A stretch of 64,000 nt of DNA, from positions 4,096-68,095 of the forward strand of contig JAFUCZ010000030.1 in the NCBI GenBank assembly GCA_017459425.1. Reading direction: 5' to 3'. The notes beneath the pieces were generated by a model that saw nothing but the letters and a program-made list of their open reading frames with translations, made no database searches and was not told the origin of the DNA. Source of the DNA: Bacilli bacterium (GTDB lineage Bacteria; Bacillota_I; Bacilli_A; RF39; UBA660). Made by a program: the position numbers and the translations under genes. Of the stretch, positions 52,119 through 60,914 are shown in pieces (within the stretch, counting starts at the first letter, position 1; every line of letters begins with the position of its first letter).

Positions 52119-52127
52119 GTGATTCTT

Positions 52128-54554
52128 ATGAAATTAAAATTTAGAGCTGAAAAAAAGGATGTAATAATATTTGTTATTTTTTGCATATTGCTTTTATATT
52201 TAGTTGCAATCGGAGTAGTAAATATAGCTACTTTTGCAAGTGAATCAAAATTTTCTGGATTAAATCCACTACCTGCTTTTAGTAGCGAATATTTCGCACC
52301 TACTATGGTATTTTTCTTAATAGCGCTTATTGCTATAATAAGTAGTGTATCTTCAAAGTTTTTTGAAAGAGAAAAAGGAATTGGAGTTGTAACTGCTCCA
52401 AAAGAATCTAAAGGATATGCTAGATGGGCAACTGCTAAAGAAATGAAGAAAAAATTAAAAATGGTTGACCCTAAAGCAATTGATAGTGAAGTTGCGGGTA
52501 TTCCTTTAATTAATAATGGTAAAGAAATATGGGTAGATGATAGTGAGTGGCACAATTTAATTATTGGTTCTACTGCATCAGGTAAAACTGAAAGTATTGT
52601 TCAACCTATGGTTAAGTCATTGATGAAAAAAGGTGAATCAATGATTATAACTGACCCTAAAGGTGAAATATACGAAAGAAATGGTGAAGAGTTAAAGGAA
52701 CGCGGTTATAATGTAGTTTTACTTAATTTTCGTGATCCACAAAGAGGTAATTGTTGGAATCCGATAACTTTGCCATATAGTTTATATAAAGAAGGAAAAA
52801 AAGATAAAGCAACAGAGTTGCTAGACGATTTAGCTAAAAACATTCTATATGATGAAGCTAATAAGAATGGGGACCCATTTTGGGAAAATACATCAGCTGA
52901 TTATTTTGCTGGATTATGTTTAGCTTTATTTGATGATGCTCGTGAAGAACAAATTAATTTAAATACAATTAATTTAATGACTACTGTTGGTGAAAATAAA
53001 TTAGGTGGAACTACTTATATGAAAGAGTACTTTAGTGATAAAGATCAAGGTTCTCCTGCATATATAAATGTTGCAAGTACTTTGATGGCACCAAGTGAAA
53101 CAAAGGGGAGTATTCTATCAGTATTTAAACAAAAAATTAAATTATTTTCATCTAAAGAAAATTTATCTGAAATGTTAAGTCATACTGATTTTGATATGAA
53201 AGATATAGGAAGAAAAAAAACAGCGGTATTTATTATAATTCATGATGAGAAAAAAACATACCATCCACTTGCTACAATTTTTGTAAAACAATGTTATGAG
53301 ACTTTAATAGATGTAGCATTTGAAAACGGTGGTAAATTACCTCAAAAAACTAACTTTATTCTTGATGAGTTTGCTAATATGCCTCCTTTAAAAGATGCGG
53401 ATGCAATGGTAACAGCAGCGCGTTCTCGTTTAATAAGATTTACATATATTATTCAAAACTTTGCTCAATTAACTGAGGTATATGGAAAAGAAAAAGGAGA
53501 CACTATTAAAGGTAACTGTGGTAACTGGATTTATTTAATTAGTACAGAACTTGCAGCACTTGAAGAAATAAGTAAAATGTGCGGAGATGTTAAGTCTAAA
53601 AAAGATGATAAAACAGATAGTAGGCCTCTTGTTACTGTTTCTGACTTACAAAGACTGCCAATGTATACAATGATTATATTGCGTGCACGTAGTATGCCTT
53701 TTAAAACTAAAATGACACCAGCTTGGAAAATGGATCAAGAAAATATGTGGGGCGTAAGTTATCCAAAAGCAACTTATCCAAATCGTGAAAAACAAAAAGT
53801 AGAGATATTTGATATTAAAGCTTATGTTGACGAAAAAAAAGATAAAAAAATAAGAGAAATGTTAAATAAAGGCTCTAATGACATGCCTAAAAATCCATTT
53901 ATGGATCAAATGCCAGGTATGGGTATGTTCCCACCAATGTTTGGTACAAATAATCATCAAAGAAATGAAAATAATAATTTTAATGTGGATGATTTATTAA
54001 AAAGAATAGACGCAAAAATTGCAGAACTTGAAGAAGAAGAAAAAAATGAAGCACAAGATAAGATTAAAGAACAAATTAATGATATTGATTTGGTGCCTGA
54101 TAAATTTAATGATGAAATAAAGGCACTAGATAAAATAGAAGATGATAAAATAATTCAAAATGATATTAATAATACTGATTTGAAATTAAATTTGCCAGAT
54201 TCAAGTATTAAAACTAATTCAAATACTCAAACTCAAAATAGTATTGAATTTGATAAATCAAATTCAAGTGTTAAACCAGATATTAATTCAAAAATAGAAA
54301 CTCAAATTAATAATCTTGATTTAATACCTGACAAGTTAAATGATGAAATAAAGGTATTAGACAAAATAGAAGATGATAAAGTTAATTTGAATGAATTTAA
54401 GATTAATACGTCTAATATTAAATTTCCAGAACAATTAAACAACAACAAAAATGTTGTAATTCCAAGTGAAGAAATAATAGAAGAAACAAATGATGGTAAT
54501 AATGTTGTTACTGATGATCAATTTTTTGATGATTTCTTTAGTGATGATGAATAA
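52128..54554 (+). CDS. virD4: VirD4/TraG-type type IV coupling protein with long repeat-containing acidic C-terminal tail
   Basis: Two N-terminal TMs, Walker A GSTASGKTE, Walker B NFILDEFANMP, ARSRLIRFTYIIQNFAQL. AGGTGA RBS before ATG 52128. Confidence 0.85.
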   Translation: MKLKFRAEKKDVIIFVIFCILLLYLVAIGVVNIATFASESKFSGLNPLPAFSSEYFAPTMVFFLIALIAIISSVSSKFFEREKGIGVVTAPKESKGYARWATAKEMKKKLKMVDPKAIDSEVAGIPLINNGKEIWVDDSEWHNLIIGSTASGKTESIVQPMVKSLMKKGESMIITDPKGEIYERNGEELKERGYNVVLLNFRDPQRGNCWNPITLPYSLYKEGKKDKATELLDDLAKNILYDEANKNGDPFWENTSADYFAGLCLALFDDAREEQINLNTINLMTTVGENKLGGTTYMKEYFSDKDQGSPAYINVASTLMAPSETKGSILSVFKQKIKLFSSKENLSEMLSHTDFDMKDIGRKKTAVFIIIHDEKKTYHPLATIFVKQCYETLIDVAFENGGKLPQKTNFILDEFANMPPLKDADAMVTAARSRLIRFTYIIQNFAQLTEVYGKEKGDTIKGNCGNWIYLISTELAALEEISKMCGDVKSKKDDKTDSRPLVTVSDLQRLPMYTMIILRARSMPFKTKMTPAWKMDQENMWGVSYPKATYPNREKQKVEIFDIKAYVDEKKDKKIREMLNKGSNDMPKNPFMDQMPGMGMFPPMFGTNNHQRNENNNFNVDDLLKRIDAKIAELEEEEKNEAQDKIKEQINDIDLVPDKFNDEIKALDKIEDDKIIQNDINNTDLKLNLPDSSIKTNSNTQTQNSIEFDKSNSSVKPDINSKIETQINNLDLIPDKLNDEIKVLDKIEDDKVNLNEFKINTSNIKFPEQLNNNKNVVIPSEEIIEETNDGNNVVTDDQFFDDFFSDDE
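54075..54380 (+). repeat. Two 75-nt coding repeats, 231 nt apart, in the T4CP tail
   Basis: 54075-54149 (INDIDLVPDKFNDEIKALDKIEDDK) and 54306-54380 (INNLDLIPDKLNDEIKVLDKIEDDK); most nucleotide positions are identical when aligned by eye. Confidence 0.8.
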
Positions 54555-57623: not shown

Positions 57624-58203
57624 TTTATTGATTGTTTTGGTTTCGGTTTTAATAAGTCTATATTATTGTTATTCATATATTGAAATAAAAAAGTACGCAA
57701 ATGCATTATCTTCTTTGATAATAATACCTTTAATGGTAGCGCCTTTAATAATAACAAAAATTACAAAAAAATCTAATAATTGGATAGAATCAATTTATAT
57801 TGTATTTATTTTTCTAGCACAAGTACTTGGCAGTGTTGTAGGATTATATCATTCGTTTAGTGGGTATGATAAAATAGTACATATGATATCAGGAATTGTT
57901 ACTTCTTTTTTAGGAGTATATATATTATATAAATTTAAAAAAGGTGACAACAAATTTTTTAATATAATATTTATTGTAATTATTACTTTAGCTATAGCAG
58001 CTATCTGGGAATTAATTGAGTATAATATTGATAATATTTTTAAAACTGATGTGCAATGGGTAAGTAAAACTGGTATAAATGATACAATGACAGATATTAT
58101 TAGTGCTTTAATAGGGACATGTTTATTTAATATATGTTATTTGTTTGAAATATGTAATGATAAAAAAATGATTGTTACTAAGTTTATAAATAGTTTAAAT
58201 TAA
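57610..58203 (+). CDS. YjdF/DUF2238-like membrane protein
   Basis: Multi-TM protein with YDKIVHMISGIVTSFLG and IWELIEYNIDNIF...DTMTDIISALIG motifs (family recalled from memory). Confidence 0.55.
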   Translation: MKKINLLIVLVSVLISLYYCYSYIEIKKYANALSSLIIIPLMVAPLIITKITKKSNNWIESIYIVFIFLAQVLGSVVGLYHSFSGYDKIVHMISGIVTSFLGVYILYKFKKGDNKFFNIIFIVIITLAIAAIWELIEYNIDNIFKTDVQWVSKTGINDTMTDIISALIGTCLFNICYLFEICNDKKMIVTKFINSLN

Positions 58204-58241
58204 AAAATACAGATTTTATTTTTCTGTATTTTTTTTGTTAC
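58204..58241 (+). repeat. 38-bp terminator-containing direct repeat, copy 1
   Basis: aaaatacagattttatttttctgtattttttttgttac is identical to 58775-58812. It contains the hairpin aatacaga/tctgtatt followed by a T-run, which terminates the upstream gene. Confidence 0.9.
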
Positions 58242-58242
58242 T

Positions 58243-58653
58243 GATTGGTTAAGGAATAGAAATACTATTGAATTTTTAGGTATATGGGAAGAATTGCATA
58301 ATCCAAATTTTAATTATGGCGAATTCGCCATAATTAAAAGTCAAGCTGGTTTAAATAGCCATAAATTAAGTGTTAAAGAATGGGTGGAGAAAACGAATGC
58401 TATTTGAATTACTGCTAAACGATGGAGAGAAGAACATTCTAATTTAGAAGGAAATATTAGAGATTATGCATCTATAAATGAATTAATATGTTTAGCAAAT
58501 CTAGAAAACTTGAATTCTGCATTTATTAATGATGAACTTAATCAATCAATACGATTAGAAAGATTAAATAAAATTGCTATATCACAAATGAAAATATTAA
58601 ATGAAAGTGATAAAGATAATATAGAAAATGTTAAAACTTTAATAACTAATTAA
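58243..58653 (+). pseudogene. Remnant of a KilA-N/antirepressor-type gene (5'-truncated, internal deletion, in-frame stop)
   Basis: Translates as DWLRNRNTIEFLGIWEELHNPNFNYGEFAIIKSQAGLNSHKLSVKEWVEKTNAI*ITAKRWREEHSNLEGNIRDYASINELICLANLENLNSAF.... There is no start codon, and it is missing roughly 120 aa relative to intact family members as I recall them. Confidence 0.6.
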
Positions 58654-58709
58654 TAATGTCATTTGGTAGTTATAAGTGAAGATTTTCCAACCCCAGAAAA
58701 AGTTTAAAA
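58654..58709 (+). repeat. Copy 1 of a 56/57-bp repeat: element right end plus frameshifted dinD-type 3' coding remnant
   Basis: taatgtcatttggtagttataagtgaagattttccaaccccagaaaaagtttaaaa versus 60828-60884: 4 substitutions and one 1-nt indel. Encodes SEDFPTPEK before the frameshift. Confidence 0.85.
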
Positions 58710-58774
58710 CAACTTTTAAAAGAAAGTAACAATAAAATAGTTGATTAATTTATTAAAAAAAATAATTTTTTTAT

Positions 58775-58812
58775 AAAATACAGATTTTATTTTTCTGTAT
58801 TTTTTTTGTTAC
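58775..58812 (+). repeat. 38-bp terminator-containing direct repeat, copy 2
   Basis: Identical to 58204-58241. Confidence 0.9.
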
Positions 58813-58935: not shown

Positions 58936-59706
58936 ATGCATGATTTAGAAATTAATAATAGTATATTCGAAAAGATTAAACATATTGATGAGTATGGAAA
59001 TGAATATTGGAGCGCTAGAGATTTACAAAATGTATTAGGATATAAGAAATGGGATAAGTTTCTTAATGTTATTTTAAATGCAGAAAAAGCATGTATTAAT
59101 AGTAATTGTGATTCAAATTATCATTTTCTCCAAATGGAGAAAATGATAGATACCGGTAAAGGAGCTAAGAGAAAAATTTTAGATTATAAGTTATCTAGAT
59201 ATGCTTGTTATCTTATAGTACAAAATGCTGATCCTTCTAAAGAAGTAGTTGCATTAGGACAAACTTATTTTACAATTCAAACAAGAAAGCAAGAATTAAG
59301 AGAATTGGATTATTCTAAATTAACTGAAGATGAAAAGAGATTGTATCAAAGAAGTTTAACTAAAAAAGGTAACTACTCTTTAAATCAAACTGCAAAAGCA
59401 GCAGGTGTTAAAAACTTTGATAAATTTCATAATGCAGGATATATGGGACTATATAATGGTGAAACTGCAGATGATATTGCTAAAAGAAAAGGATTAAGAT
59501 ATAGAGAAGATATTTTAGATAATATGGGAAGTGTAGAACTAGCTGCTAATCTGTTTAGAATAACTCAAACAGATGAAAAATTAAAAAATGATAATATTAA
59601 AGGCGAAAAAAATGCGAATGTTACTCATTATAATATGGGTAAAGATATCCGAAATTTTATAAAAGAACAGGGAGGAACTATGCCGGAAGTTATATGTACA
59701 AAATGA
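58936..59706 (+). CDS. dinD: DNA-damage-inducible protein D (DinD), C-terminus replaced by an insertion
   Basis: Collinear with E. coli DinD as recalled (FEKIKHIDEYGNEYWSARDLQ...LSRYACYLIVQNADP...GQTYFTIQTRKQEL...MGSVELAANLFRITQTDEKLK...GGTMPE). After GGTMPE it reads VICTK* instead of the expected (E/D)LPTP... tail. AGGAG RBS before ATG 58936. Confidence 0.8.
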   Translation: MHDLEINNSIFEKIKHIDEYGNEYWSARDLQNVLGYKKWDKFLNVILNAEKACINSNCDSNYHFLQMEKMIDTGKGAKRKILDYKLSRYACYLIVQNADPSKEVVALGQTYFTIQTRKQELRELDYSKLTEDEKRLYQRSLTKKGNYSLNQTAKAAGVKNFDKFHNAGYMGLYNGETADDIAKRKGLRYREDILDNMGSVELAANLFRITQTDEKLKNDNIKGEKNANVTHYNMGKDIRNFIKEQGGTMPEVICTK

Positions 59707-59774
59707 CATGATCACATTTATGACAGGATAATAACACACTATGATATTGGTAAACCAATATCAATGCTTATAAA

Positions 59775-59796
59775 TTTTGCAGACACGTCTGCAAAA
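59775..59796. promoter_or_regulatory. 10-2-10 inverted repeat just upstream of the yhcG-like RBS (candidate operator)
   Basis: ttttgcagac-ac-gtctgcaaaa, with perfect 10-bp arms, ends 6 nt before GAAAGGAG. Confidence 0.35.
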
Positions 59797-59813
59797 TTAG
59801 AAAGGAGTTAAAA

Positions 59814-60830
59814 ATGATAGAAACGGTTCAAAAAGAATTTAAAACTACAGTTGTTGATGTTGTTGATAAAATTCAACAAGTGCAATTAGAAATGTTTGTA
59901 AATGCAAATAAAAGTGTATTAGAATTGTATTTTTATATAGGTGAGACTATAGAAAATAATATTCAATGGGGAAATAAATTTGTTGATGAATTATCTGTTG
60001 AATTAAAAATAAGATTTCCAAAAGCAAAGGGGTATTCTCCAAGAAACCTTCGAAATATGAGAAAATATTATTTGGCAGTTAAAGAAAATGAAGAGTTAAA
60101 AGAACTTTCTTATAAAATACCTTGGTCACATAATACAATAATAATGGATAGGGTAAAAAATGATAATGAGAAAATATGGTATATAAAAGAAACCTATAAT
60201 AATGGTTGGAGTTATGATTATTTAGAAATTCAAGTAAAAAGAGATGCTTATTCTAGACAAATTCTTGGGGATAAACCAAATAATTTTGGATTAACATTAC
60301 TACAACCTCAAAGTTCTTTGGCAAAAGAAATTATGAAAGATCCATATATATTCGATGTTGGTGAATTAAGAGAAAATTATGTAGAAAAGGATGTTGAAAA
60401 TGCATTAATAGAAAAAATAAAAATGACTTTGTTGGAATTAGGAAATGGTTTTAGTTTTATAGCAAATCAATACAGAGTTACAGTAAATAAAGAAGAAAAT
60501 TACATTGATTTACTATTCTACCATACTAAATTACATTGTTATATCGCTATAGAATTAAAAAACAAAAAATTTATACCTGAATATGCTGGTAAAATGAATT
60601 ATTACTTATCTGCTTTAGATGATATGCTAAAAACTGAATATGACAATCCATCTATTGGAATTATTTTAGTTAGAAATAAGGATAAACTAAATGTAGAATA
60701 TGCACTTAGAAACATTAATAAGCCTATTGGAGTAAGTTCTTATGAACTATCAGAATACTTACCAAAAGATGCATTAGAATCATTGCCAACTGAGGAAGAA
60801 TTAAACTTACATATAGATATAAAAGAGTAA
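59814..60830 (+). CDS. YhcG-family (DUF1016) PD-(D/E)XK nuclease-domain protein
   Basis: C-terminal core LGNGFSFIANQYRVTVNKEENYIDLLFYHTKLHCYIAIELKNKKFIPEYAGKMNYYLSALDD (D...E-L-K nuclease motif), with the N-terminal helical YhcG-type domain. Confidence 0.8.
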   Translation: MIETVQKEFKTTVVDVVDKIQQVQLEMFVNANKSVLELYFYIGETIENNIQWGNKFVDELSVELKIRFPKAKGYSPRNLRNMRKYYLAVKENEELKELSYKIPWSHNTIIMDRVKNDNEKIWYIKETYNNGWSYDYLEIQVKRDAYSRQILGDKPNNFGLTLLQPQSSLAKEIMKDPYIFDVGELRENYVEKDVENALIEKIKMTLLELGNGFSFIANQYRVTVNKEENYIDLLFYHTKLHCYIAIELKNKKFIPEYAGKMNYYLSALDDMLKTEYDNPSIGIILVRNKDKLNVEYALRNINKPIGVSSYELSEYLPKDALESLPTEEELNLHIDIKE

Positions 60831-60851
60831 TGTCATTTGGTAGTGGTAACT

Positions 60852-60914
60852 GAAGATTTGCCAACCCCAGAAAAAAGTTTAAAAGAATTGGAGCGAGAAA
60901 AAAATTTTAATTGA
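60852..60914 (+). pseudogene. dinD: Displaced 3' end of dinD (last 20 codons plus stop)
   Basis: Reads EDLPTPEKSLKELEREKNFN*, the conserved DinD tail (E. coli: ...GGTMPEELPTPQVSIKQLE...). It has no start codon of its own. Confidence 0.7.

Follow-up and report, generated by a model that had tools for sequence, protein, structure and literature searches.

The dinD gene within a 64-kb stretch of bacterial DNA (64,000 nucleotides, all of it called the window here) breaks off before its normal end, and its last codons lie more than 1 kb further on. This raises the question of whether the segment in between is a mobile element and, if so, what moves it. The segment, at 59689-60851, belongs to a family of compact insertion cassettes (~1.15 kb) found in uncultured gut Bacilli. 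The plan of these cassettes is simple: imperfect inverted ends of ~21 nt, two sites of dyad symmetry in a leader of ~105 nt, and a single gene of the YhcG/DUF1016 family. A family with shared ends at three target gene types in uncultured gut Bacilli is new here. No paper describing such an element was found in the literature searched, in line with the undescribed mobility mode proposed in the initial annotation.

DUF1016/YhcG is a large, widely distributed family to which no function has been assigned, and its members are mostly mentioned just as hitch-hikers of restriction-modification and defence islands, near DinD, RhuM and KilA-N-type genes. Stand-alone YhcG/DUF1016 genes are enriched in restriction-modification loci (PMC9881135).

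The Interrupted dinD Gene

58936..59688, forward strand: 5' part of dinD, a Bro-N domain protein (Pfam) up to GGTMPE; NCBIfam DinD equivalog; intact relatives go on with DLPTP
60852..60914, forward strand: displaced dinD tail EDLPTPEKSLKELEREKNFN with its stop; opens with GAA, the right copy of the duplicated triplet

The gene matches the NCBIfam equivalog NF008573 with 326 bits (cut-off 242), and the conserved GGTMPE-x-LPTP tail of DinD proteins is present but shifted 1163 nt downstream. The truncated product reads ...EQGGTMPE, continues with VICTK, and terminates at a TGA at 59704-59706; the tail resumes at 60852 in the same frame as the yhcG stop codon. Genetic code 4, in which TGA would be read as Trp and dinD extended into the element, was rejected; long normal ORFs are found under code 11.

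The triplet GAA flanks both junctions, at 59686-59688 (the last codon of the dinD 5' part) and at 60852-60854. It is taken as duplicated because intact dinD relatives read GGTMPE-DLPTP. For example, an intact dinD that is 78% identical reads ATGCCAGAA/AACCTACC (here and below a slash marks the insertion point) and has one GAA only. The GGTMPE-x-LPTP stretch is uninterrupted in all 119 other DinD relatives listed, and the intact target site is written GGAACTATGCCNGAA/GATTTRCCAAC. A split dinD with its tail 1163 nt downstream, and GAA on each side as a possible 3-bp target duplication, had been proposed in the initial annotation, and both proposals are borne out. Empty-site dinD alleles, suggested there as a check, were found, and the relatives do not end naturally at VICTK but run through to LPTP.

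Ends and Leader of the Inserted Element

59689..60851, forward strand: inserted element, 1163 bp, ~97% identical to loci L013 and L015 over this span only (flanks 40-88%)
59689..59709, forward strand: left inverted repeat GTTATATGTACAAAATGACAT; homologous left ends occur in ORF6N and Bro-N copies
59698-59709, forward strand: core of the left repeat, ACAAAATGACAT
59703..59732, forward strand: promoter-like site, ATGACA, 18 nt, GATAAT (consensus scan only, 10/12)
59743..59762, forward strand: hairpin or dyad 1, GATATTGGTAAACCAATATC, that is GATATTGG-TAAA-CCAATATC; the stems are kept and the loop varies (TAAA, TTTG, CAAG) across copies
59773..59798, forward strand: perfect 12-2-12 palindrome AATTTTGCAGAC-AC-GTCTGCAAAATT, operator-like, just 5' of the ribosome-binding site
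60830..60851, forward strand: right inverted repeat ATGTCATTTGGTAGTGGTAAC(T), with the conserved core ATGTCATTTGGT

The left end (59689-59709) and the reverse complement of the right end (60830-60850) are identical at 16/21 positions, as first reported, with a binomial p of 3.6e-5 for the local base composition. Within the window such a match is reached by only one of the 20,900 21-mer pairs at equal spacing. These imperfect repeats surround a 12-nt core, ACMAAATGNCAT, which holds the small palindrome ATGNCAT and is conserved across the three target types. The outer 8 nt of the right repeat differ among otherwise near-identical copies. Symmetry of the ends to both junctions had also been claimed, and this is not exact: the repeats are 1 nt out of register with the duplicated triplet, an extra T (60851) lying between the right repeat and GAA. 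The VICTK codons and the TGA stop of the truncated dinD come from the left repeat.

In the leader, which folds with z = -4.1, the -35 element of the promoter-like site overlaps the repeat core, and its sequence is conserved in L013 and L015; promoter-like sites showed no enrichment over shuffles in the consensus scan. The palindrome, once given as 10-2-10, is in fact 12-2-12. It stands upstream of all close yhcG copies examined (~77-97% protein identity), that of locus L014 included although this gene has no repeat ends, and it shows mirrored double changes among copies (TTTGG..CCAAA, GAT..ATC). This 26-bp palindrome is probably an operator that holds the nuclease under control. The second hairpin, at 59743-59762, was absent from the earlier description.

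The YhcG Nuclease Gene

59803-59807, forward strand: ribosome-binding site AGGAG, upstream of the yhcG start
59814..60830, forward strand: yhcG-family gene, 338 aa, with DUF1016_N and a YhcG_C PD-(D/E)XK nuclease domain (Pfam); PADLOC call PDC-S02

As the initial annotation had it, the sole gene of the element encodes a YhcG-family PD-(D/E)XK nuclease. No second ORF was found within the element, and no transposase, recombinase, intron or intein features. In Pfam, DUF1016_N (PF17761) is matched with 116 bits (cut-off 32.8, E 1.7e-33) and YhcG_C (PF06250) with 200 bits (cut-off 32.5, E 2.2e-59); the sole match besides these is a sub-threshold HSDR_N_2. The catalytic D...E-x-K motif is present as IDLLF...IELK, with D232, E247 and K249 invariant in 31 homologues (58-96% identity), and the ORF measures 337-340 aa in the 23 copies translated. 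The nuclease is probably active, because the Pfam scores are far above threshold, the three residues are invariant and the ORF is intact in the translated copies. To our knowledge, cleavage or transposition activity is known for no YhcG protein. A search of the PDB by sequence gave no relative. The AlphaFold model is good in the helical N-domain (pLDDT ~90) and poor in the nuclease domain (pLDDT < 55), and its Foldseek matches were set aside as meaningless. The TAA stop of yhcG overlaps the right repeat; 6 nt past it is a TTG at which gene callers start the downstream ORF.

Related Copies and Their Target Genes

Copies with the same ends interrupt three families of Bro-N/ORF6N-type DNA-binding genes, each at a fixed codon: dinD in its tail, ORF6N genes at the N-terminus (VMLDxD/LA) and Bro-N genes (SKNAE/PFKLWLAK). 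All are oriented like the host gene and inserted in codon phase 0, and the codon just before them, GAW or AAA, is seen again at the right flank. The 3-bp duplication is perfect in five of the nine complete copies (the window, L013, L015 and L034 with GAA, L021 with GAT) and holds at 2/3 positions in L022, L023, L003 and L187; alternatively, the triplet may be part of the element and not a target duplication. Empty alleles are found for the Bro-N site (AE/P(M/F)KLWLAK) and the ORF6N site (VMLD-x-D/LA) as well, so occupied and empty alleles of one site exist in homologous genes, the empty ones coming from other species and different loci. No empty site at the same chromosomal locus was seen, because every contig that shares the strain's neighbouring genes (an identical DUF2238 or glycosyltransferase gene) carries the element.

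The element is ~97% identical between the window and L013/L015 (92-100% per 60-nt window). Their host dinD genes are only 39-88% identical and the neighbourhoods differ, with rmuC-DUF2238 at the window locus and nusB-xseAB in L013. The element has therefore moved independently of its host gene. The proposal of a small mobile cassette that targets a conserved coding sequence thus holds, given these copies in divergent dinD genes and the empty alleles. A guess that KilA-N or RhuM-type genes would also be hit was right in spirit, since relatives split ORF6N and Bro-N genes. The initial annotation would have read a lack of any other copy or empty site as a one-off rearrangement; both exist.

More distant copies have been observed too. 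In L032 and L038 the YhcG protein is only ~60% identical, and the same right end is kept at the same dinD and ORF6N sites; by sequence, the ends and the yhcG gene appear to have a long-standing association. L024 and L034 are two copies within one genome bin. After insertion the host gene often decays and yhcG remains intact. The YhcG proteins of L187 and L185 are 92-94% identical to that of the window, but their ends are of the ORF6N type, like those of L003. Outer end sequences thus track the target gene family and not the YhcG tree, so the protein is not the obvious seat of specificity. Recombination between resident copies could account for much of what looks like recent movement.

A Second Right End in the Window

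58200..58241, forward strand: terminator-like 42-nt direct repeat, second copy at 58771-58812 (98%)
58240..58653, forward strand: KilA-N pseudogene, 5' end missing, interrupted by an in-frame TGA and shortened by an internal deletion; directly adjoins the second right end
58654..58709, forward strand: decayed second copy of the right repeat and dinD tail (TAATGTCATTTGGTAGTTATAAGT GAAGATTTTCCAACCCCAGAA...), 88% over 56 nt to 60828-60883

The decayed right-end copy at 58654-58709 was missed in the earlier description. The pair of direct repeats encloses a remnant segment of 571 bp. Intact KilA-N relatives of 239-240 aa exist; KilA-N was considered as an alternative cargo and rejected, since those relatives (L175-L180) have no repeat 3' of the gene. 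The KilA-N/right-end junction of the window is therefore a one-off fusion.

Searches Beyond the Known Copies

No solo ends and no alternative cargo were found in ~400 kb of related loci, and no element with the same ends elsewhere in the 64-kb window. Additional core motifs in the related loci (e.g., L024:1361) were chance matches inside unrelated genes. The exact right-end 15-mer gave 120 matches in viral contigs, all of them chance or unrelated coding sequence, and 50,697 phage records held 15 distant YhcG matches only. Scans of JGI metagenomes for the solo scar (ATATGTAYAAAATGNCATTTGRTAG) and for a junction of right end and dinD tail gave 0 matches each; that collection is evidently without the element, so the absence of scars there says nothing.

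A survey of YhcG genes elsewhere for similar ends, as had been suggested, succeeded in part: relatives with such ends lie in ORF6N and Bro-N genes, and none were found in E. coli or at the more distant Bacilli YhcG genes. L014 has yhcG with the same upstream palindrome and no repeat ends. Between gltD and nanQ of E. coli, yhcG is simply present or absent as an intergenic segment, without inverted ends and without a duplication. The palindrome beside it is the local gltD/nanQ terminator, found in the empty allele too, and its likeness to the Bacilli palindrome (TGCAGAC arms) is probably chance.

What Moves the Cassette

The best explanation is the family as described together with mobilisation by its own nuclease, a reading to which about even confidence is given. 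The YhcG enzyme would mobilise its own cassette as a homing-type or cut-and-paste enzyme. It would make a staggered 3-nt cut at the target and might also cut the element at the ATGNCAT cores of its two ends, and the insertion would be finished by repair or ligation in the host. Once a gene family holds a copy, homologous recombination between copies would spread the interior and homogenise it. Counting for this reading are the empty sites with the repeated triplet, the movement independent of the host gene, the lasting association of ends and yhcG, the two copies in one genome bin, a nuclease that is probably active, and the lack of any second ORF in the element. Counting against it are outer ends that follow the target family, the failure to find an empty allele at the window's own locus, the 1-nt offset of the repeats, yhcG genes that have no such ends (L014, E. 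coli), the poor model of the nuclease domain, and a protein family with no known cleavage or transposition activity.

The same inverted ends and 3-bp duplication, with no transposase, would also be left by a non-autonomous 'mobile insertion cassette' (MIC) moved in trans by an insertion sequence or recombinase encoded elsewhere. The yhcG gene would then only ride along, perhaps in a defence or addiction role. This is an unlikely alternative, though several observations suit it: the end types are independent of the YhcG tree, a right end also adjoins the KilA-N pseudogene in the window, and YhcG is a candidate defence gene (PADLOC PDC-S02) enriched in restriction-modification loci (PMC9881135). 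Against it, the passenger is always yhcG, down to 60% identity, the searches of ~400 kb of related DNA and of the rest of the window turned up no such ends with other cargo or without any, and the KilA-N case is a one-off. Cassettes moved by insertion-sequence transposases do not typically insert with codon precision and in a single orientation, as is seen here in three gene families. Rather unlikely, too, is that the insertions in dinD, ORF6N and Bro-N are old and immobile, passed on with the host genes, with the interior homogenised by gene conversion or recombination and YhcG kept for its benefit to the cell. The mosaic copies L187 and L185 (interior window-like, ends L003-like) fit such a history, as do the intact yhcG where ends and host gene have decayed, the fixation of the element in the window's strain, and an outer right end that varies around a near-identical interior. 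However, in three hosts high identity sets in exactly at the left junction and lasts to the right core, with dinD genes that differ by 12-60% and neighbourhoods that differ, and the outer 9 nt on the left are identical, a pattern that conversion tracts with random end points would hardly produce. Moreover, the triplet is repeated in each of the three separate target families, and there were therefore at least three insertion events.

A self-splicing intron or intein that leaves dinD functional is effectively refuted. Points in its favour are the in-frame insertion, a yhcG stop codon that shares the frame of the host part beyond it, and the occurrence of PD-(D/E)XK homing endonucleases in introns. 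Yet no Rfam match was obtained at E <= 1 save a chance CRISPR-repeat match outside the element, so there is no group I or II intron; only ~125 + 22 nt of the element are non-coding, and its last base is T or A in place of the terminal G of group I introns. An intein would need a continuous polyprotein, and there is none: yhcG carries a ribosome-binding site of its own and starts in another frame, and stops lie at 59704 and 60828. The host genes, moreover, decay after insertion. A one-off rearrangement or assembly artefact is refuted by recurrence. All the sequence data are metagenome assemblies, but the same junctions recur in independent ENA, Logan and NCBI genome-bin assemblies and there are more than 20 related loci.

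If mobilisation by the cassette's own nuclease is correct, a nuclease-only architecture would join the known bacterial mobile elements, and with it a compact protein, able perhaps to recognise defined sites of 20-40 bp. A wider and more tentative proposal, somewhat doubtful at present, is that YhcG/DUF1016 proteins are the enzymes of an unrecognised class of mobile element: single-gene PD-(D/E)XK cassettes that insert in fixed orientation and in frame at specific Bro-N/ORF6N/DinD codons, by a 3-nt staggered cut and with ends that co-determine the target. A widespread family of unknown function would then gain one, and the reason why it is so often linked with DinD, RhuM and KilA-N genes in defence loci would become clear. 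Were YhcG a passenger, the cassette would still mark an unknown site-specific insertion system aimed at Bro-N/ORF6N genes. A YhcG clade with defined ends, target duplication, empty sites and three exact targets makes the hypothesis of a site-specific mobility nuclease testable.

Comparison with Known Systems

The cassette resembles insertion sequences and their transposase-less derivatives (MICs, MITEs) in being small, in its imperfect terminal inverted repeats of ~21 nt and in the short duplication at its target; two copies lie in one genome bin. It differs in that it has no DDE, HUH, serine or tyrosine enzyme, an invariant cargo and codon-exact, co-oriented insertion, and no cognate insertion sequence was seen in the 64-kb window or in ~400 kb of related loci.

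The stand-alone YhcG genes of restriction-modification and defence islands (PADLOC PDC-S02; PMC9881135) belong to the same family, with the same domain architecture and DinD/RhuM/KilA-N-type neighbours. In contrast to the cassette, those genes figure as neighbours or passengers; the literature found reports for them neither defined ends nor a target duplication nor insertion within a gene, and E. coli yhcG has none of these.

Gene splitting by a nuclease gene has a parallel in viruses. Free-standing homing endonuclease genes split genes of T4-like phages, e.g., mobE in nrdA of phage Aeh1. There as here, a nuclease gene within a coding sequence gives 'genes in pieces', and the downstream piece starts right after the nuclease gene. 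The hosts here differ in being bacterial chromosomes, and many of the host pieces decay, so continued function of the host gene is not evident.

Homing endonuclease genes stand free or lie within introns or inteins, and those of the PD-(D/E)XK type include I-Ssp6803I. YhcG/DUF1016 belongs to no homing endonuclease family recognised in Pfam and matches no intron model. The cassette departs from homing endonuclease genes in several respects: no intron or intein surrounds it, the host reading frame is broken by it, its ends are inverted repeats with a 3-bp duplication at the junctions, and a single YhcG clade is found at three unrelated target sequences. Like them, it consists of a single nuclease gene that some alleles of a conserved gene have at one exact position and others lack, and it occupies the same site in divergent alleles, with fixed orientation and host-independent spread.

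The split dinD gene and its uninterrupted relatives

Re-reading of the window sequence upholds the initial annotation of a dinD gene split by an insert with a single gene. DinD reads ...KEQGGTMPE, then VICTK and a stop codon, and its tail is displaced 1163 nt downstream.

Features of the split dinD locus (window coordinates)
58936: start of dinD; NCBIfam DinD equivalog at 326 bits (cut-off 242 bits) and Pfam Bro-N domain
59689-60851: element, 1163-bp insert
59704-59706: TGA stop of the dinD 5' part
59743-59762: hairpin 1, a second hairpin that the initial annotation did not mention
59773-59798: palindrome, 26 bp
59814-60830: yhcG, 338 aa, sole long ORF of the element; DUF1016_N and YhcG_C, both far above threshold
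60843-60851: variable outer right end
60852-60914: dinD tail, EDLPTPEKSLKELEREKNFN and stop

A search with the reconstructed DinD listed 120 relatives, one of them the window's own truncated protein. The other 119 listed, mostly 270-277 aa long and 70-78% identical, read uninterrupted through ...GGTMPE-(D/N/K/C/E)-LPTPKKSLKELEKE; VICTK is therefore not the natural end of dinD. At the DNA level, an intact dinD of 78% identity joins GGAACTATGCCAGAA directly to AACCTACC with one GAA only. GAA stands on both sides of the insert in the window, and a 3-bp repeat thus accompanies insertion. Among contigs sharing the neighbouring genes, no empty allele at the strain's own locus was found.

A family of elements in three target genes

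The initial annotation proposed a survey for further copies, also in other host genes, and such a family exists. YhcG proteins 77-99% identical to that of the window are common in metagenomes, and scanning species-representative genomes yielded 28 loci. All 28 belong to uncultured Bacilli from the guts of deer, rabbit, goat and reindeer. Three host contexts have been found (L-numbers denote related loci from other assemblies).

Target genes and insertion points
(a) dinD tail, identical codon: window, L013, L015/L016, L032
(b) ORF6N, split after ...(K/R)QVMLD-x-D, resuming LAxLY: L003-L012/L020, L021-L023, L038, L039, L185, L187-L196
(c) Bro-N of another type, split after ...IESIPSKNAE, resuming PFKLWLAK: L017, L018, L027, L034, L036, L037, L042

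Intact relatives on viral contigs read AEP(M/F)KLWLAK (Bro-N) and VMLD(F/R)DLA(E/G)LY (ORF6N), which fixes the insertion points in these two genes. L187-L196 have two tandem ORF6N genes with the element only in the second, an arrangement recurring in 10 contigs from different samples. All element copies have a TTG or ATG 6 nt past the yhcG stop, and it is there that gene callers begin the long intact downstream ORF6N ORFs of L185 and L187-L196.

The element ends are inverted repeats with 16 of 21 positions matching (p = 3.6e-5 in a binomial test with local composition), a match equalled by only 1 of 20,900 equally spaced 21-mer pairs in the window. They had been described as symmetric about the junctions; the inverted repeats hold, but an extra T (60851) offsets them by one base relative to GAA. 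Common to all copies are a left core, ACMAAATGNCAT, some 105 nt upstream of the yhcG start codon, and a right end, TAATGTCATTTGGTA, overlapping the yhcG stop codon. Every copy has the orientation of its host gene, joins it at codon phase 0 after GAA, GAT, GAG or AAA, and has a yhcG stop that shares the reading frame of the host fragment downstream of it. yhcG and that fragment may be translationally coupled.

The junction triplet reappears at the right flank as a perfect GAA in the window, L013, L015 and L034, as a perfect GAT in L021, and with two of three bases matching in L022, L023, L003 and L187. Between ATGTCATTTGGTAG and the repeated triplet lie 6-9 nt that differ among near-identical copies (window 60843-60851, L013 5030-5038 and L015 4030-4038, in elements otherwise 96-98% identical). 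Variants of this outer right end are GTGGTAACT, GCAGCAACT and GCAACAACT. The left outer 9 nt, unlike the right end, are identical between the same copies. Such variability fits imprecise joining at one end with each insertion; it also fits older resident ends whose interior was replaced via recombination between copies.

The yhcG gene and its leader

The product belongs to the YhcG/DUF1016 family, with both domains and the D...ExK motif. It is 337-340 aa long in 23 translated copies; frameshifts occur in others (L034, L037, L041 and L042). In PADLOC, YhcG is PDC-S02 and DinD is PDC-S13; both are listed there as candidates for phage defence.

The palindrome before yhcG was correctly noticed, but it is 12-2-12 rather than 10-2-10. 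It lies directly before the ribosome-binding site, and every close yhcG copy examined retains it upstream, including L014, a locus without the repeat ends. Its mirrored double changes, TTTGG...CCAAA and GAT...ATC, are the pattern expected of a dimer-bound operator, and the dimer binding this putative operator is possibly YhcG itself. In L024-L031 and L037, mirrored compensatory changes in both arms convert TTTTGCAGAC/GTCTGCAAAA to TTTGGCAGAT/ATCTGCCAAA; the L027 palindrome is an intermediate changed in one arm. Hairpin 1 keeps its stems between copies while the loop varies, and none of 200 shuffled sequences folds as well as the leader (z = -4.1). A promoter-like site overlapping the left core is a consensus match only, of a kind not enriched in the region. 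In the ORF6N-inserted L185 (2480-3000) the leader is longer by about 250 nt, which lie between the left end and hairpin 1 together with a further perfect palindrome, ACTTATCTGGATATCCAGATAAGT.

The upstream remnant

Upstream, positions 58654-58709 hold a second, decayed right end with a dinD tail (88% over 56 nt); the outer right end there reads GTTATAAGT. The surrounding 571-bp segment (58240-58812) lies between 42-nt terminator-like direct repeats (58200-58241 and 58771-58812, 98%). Inside it is a KilA-N pseudogene that has lost its 5' end, contains a TGA in frame and has an internal deletion; this pseudogene runs directly into the second right end and decayed tail. The segment is probably what is left of an earlier dinD copy carrying the element. 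The repeat after KilA-N is absent from KilA-N relatives elsewhere, and the junction in the window is a one-off. Within conserved KilA-N coding sequence (NPNFNYGEFAIIKS) lies a 14-4-14 palindrome, TTTTAATTATGGCGAATTCGCCATAATTAAAA (58308-58339). Just upstream of rmuC-DUF2238-dinD is a TraG/VirD4-type type IV secretion coupling protein (811 aa, 52119-54554), and a conjugative element, at about 40-56 kb in the window, may border the dinD locus.

Movement and its possible mechanism

The element is a compact cassette of inverted ends and one nuclease gene that has undergone at least three insertions, all with a 3-bp repeat, and has spread to divergent alleles of its host genes. Compared with L015 or L013, the window's element keeps 92-100% identity across all 60-nt intervals; the flanking dinD is 39-64% identical in its 5' half and 61-88% in its 3' half, and the jump at 59683 is sharp. 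The neighbourhoods are also unlike, rmuC-DUF2238 ... glycosyltransferase in the window versus nusB-xseA-xseB in L013. L032 and L038 encode YhcG proteins about 60% identical, yet occupy the same dinD and ORF6N sites, so ends, gene and target have long been associated. One genome bin holds two copies (L024, L034). Host genes are commonly decayed after insertion, and yhcG stays at intact length in the 23 copies translated.

The initial proposal of a mobile cassette targeting conserved coding sequence is borne out for mobility and site specificity; mobilisation by its own nuclease is a hypothesis. There is perhaps an even chance that YhcG is the mobility enzyme. It would cut the target with a 3-nt stagger, and perhaps also the palindromic cores, ATGNCAT; the insertion would be completed through repair or ligation by the host, and recombination between copies would then homogenise the interior. 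Copies are mosaic: L187 and L185 have yhcG interiors 90-94% window-like within outer ends of the ORF6N type, as in L003 (YhcG 80% identical), so the outer ends track the target family and not the protein tree. This disagreement would suit an unseen transposase or recombinase acting in trans on a passenger yhcG, which is rather unlikely given that the cargo is invariant and insertion is codon-exact and in a single orientation. About 400 kb of related DNA showed neither solo ends nor any cargo besides yhcG. Homogenisation of old, immobile insertions through gene conversion is an unlikely source of the pattern. An intron or intein is very improbable, with no Rfam match, too short a non-coding RNA, stops at both sides and decaying host genes. 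The chance of an artefact is negligible, as the junctions recur in independent assemblies.

Comparison with known systems

DUF1016 and RhuM genes are over-represented next to phase-variable restriction-modification genes (PMC9881135), and DUF1016 genes have been recorded as passengers of conjugative elements (PMC4316617). In literature mentioning DUF1016 or YhcG, no report of defined ends, target duplication or in-gene insertion was found. In E. coli, yhcG (L201 7828-8955; L202 2940-3010; L203 2445-3810) occupies an intergenic segment of about 1.3 kb between gltD and nanQ that is present in some alleles and absent from others. Element-type ends are absent there and at the more distant Bacilli copies L033, L035 and L040, so these ends are not general to the YhcG family. 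The E. coli yhcADEF fimbrial genes are likewise variable, and the gltD/nanQ terminator palindrome reads CTGCAGAC... in yhcG-plus versus GCCAGAC... in yhcG-minus alleles.

The element is rated a selfish nuclease cassette; that it belongs to a new class of mobile elements driven by a nuclease is a tentative and somewhat doubtful proposal. It has no transposase, unlike an insertion sequence, which it resembles in its inverted ends and target duplication. Like homing endonuclease genes it is site-specific, with occupied and empty alleles, but it is carried by neither an intron nor an intein, and the recognised homing endonuclease families do not include YhcG.
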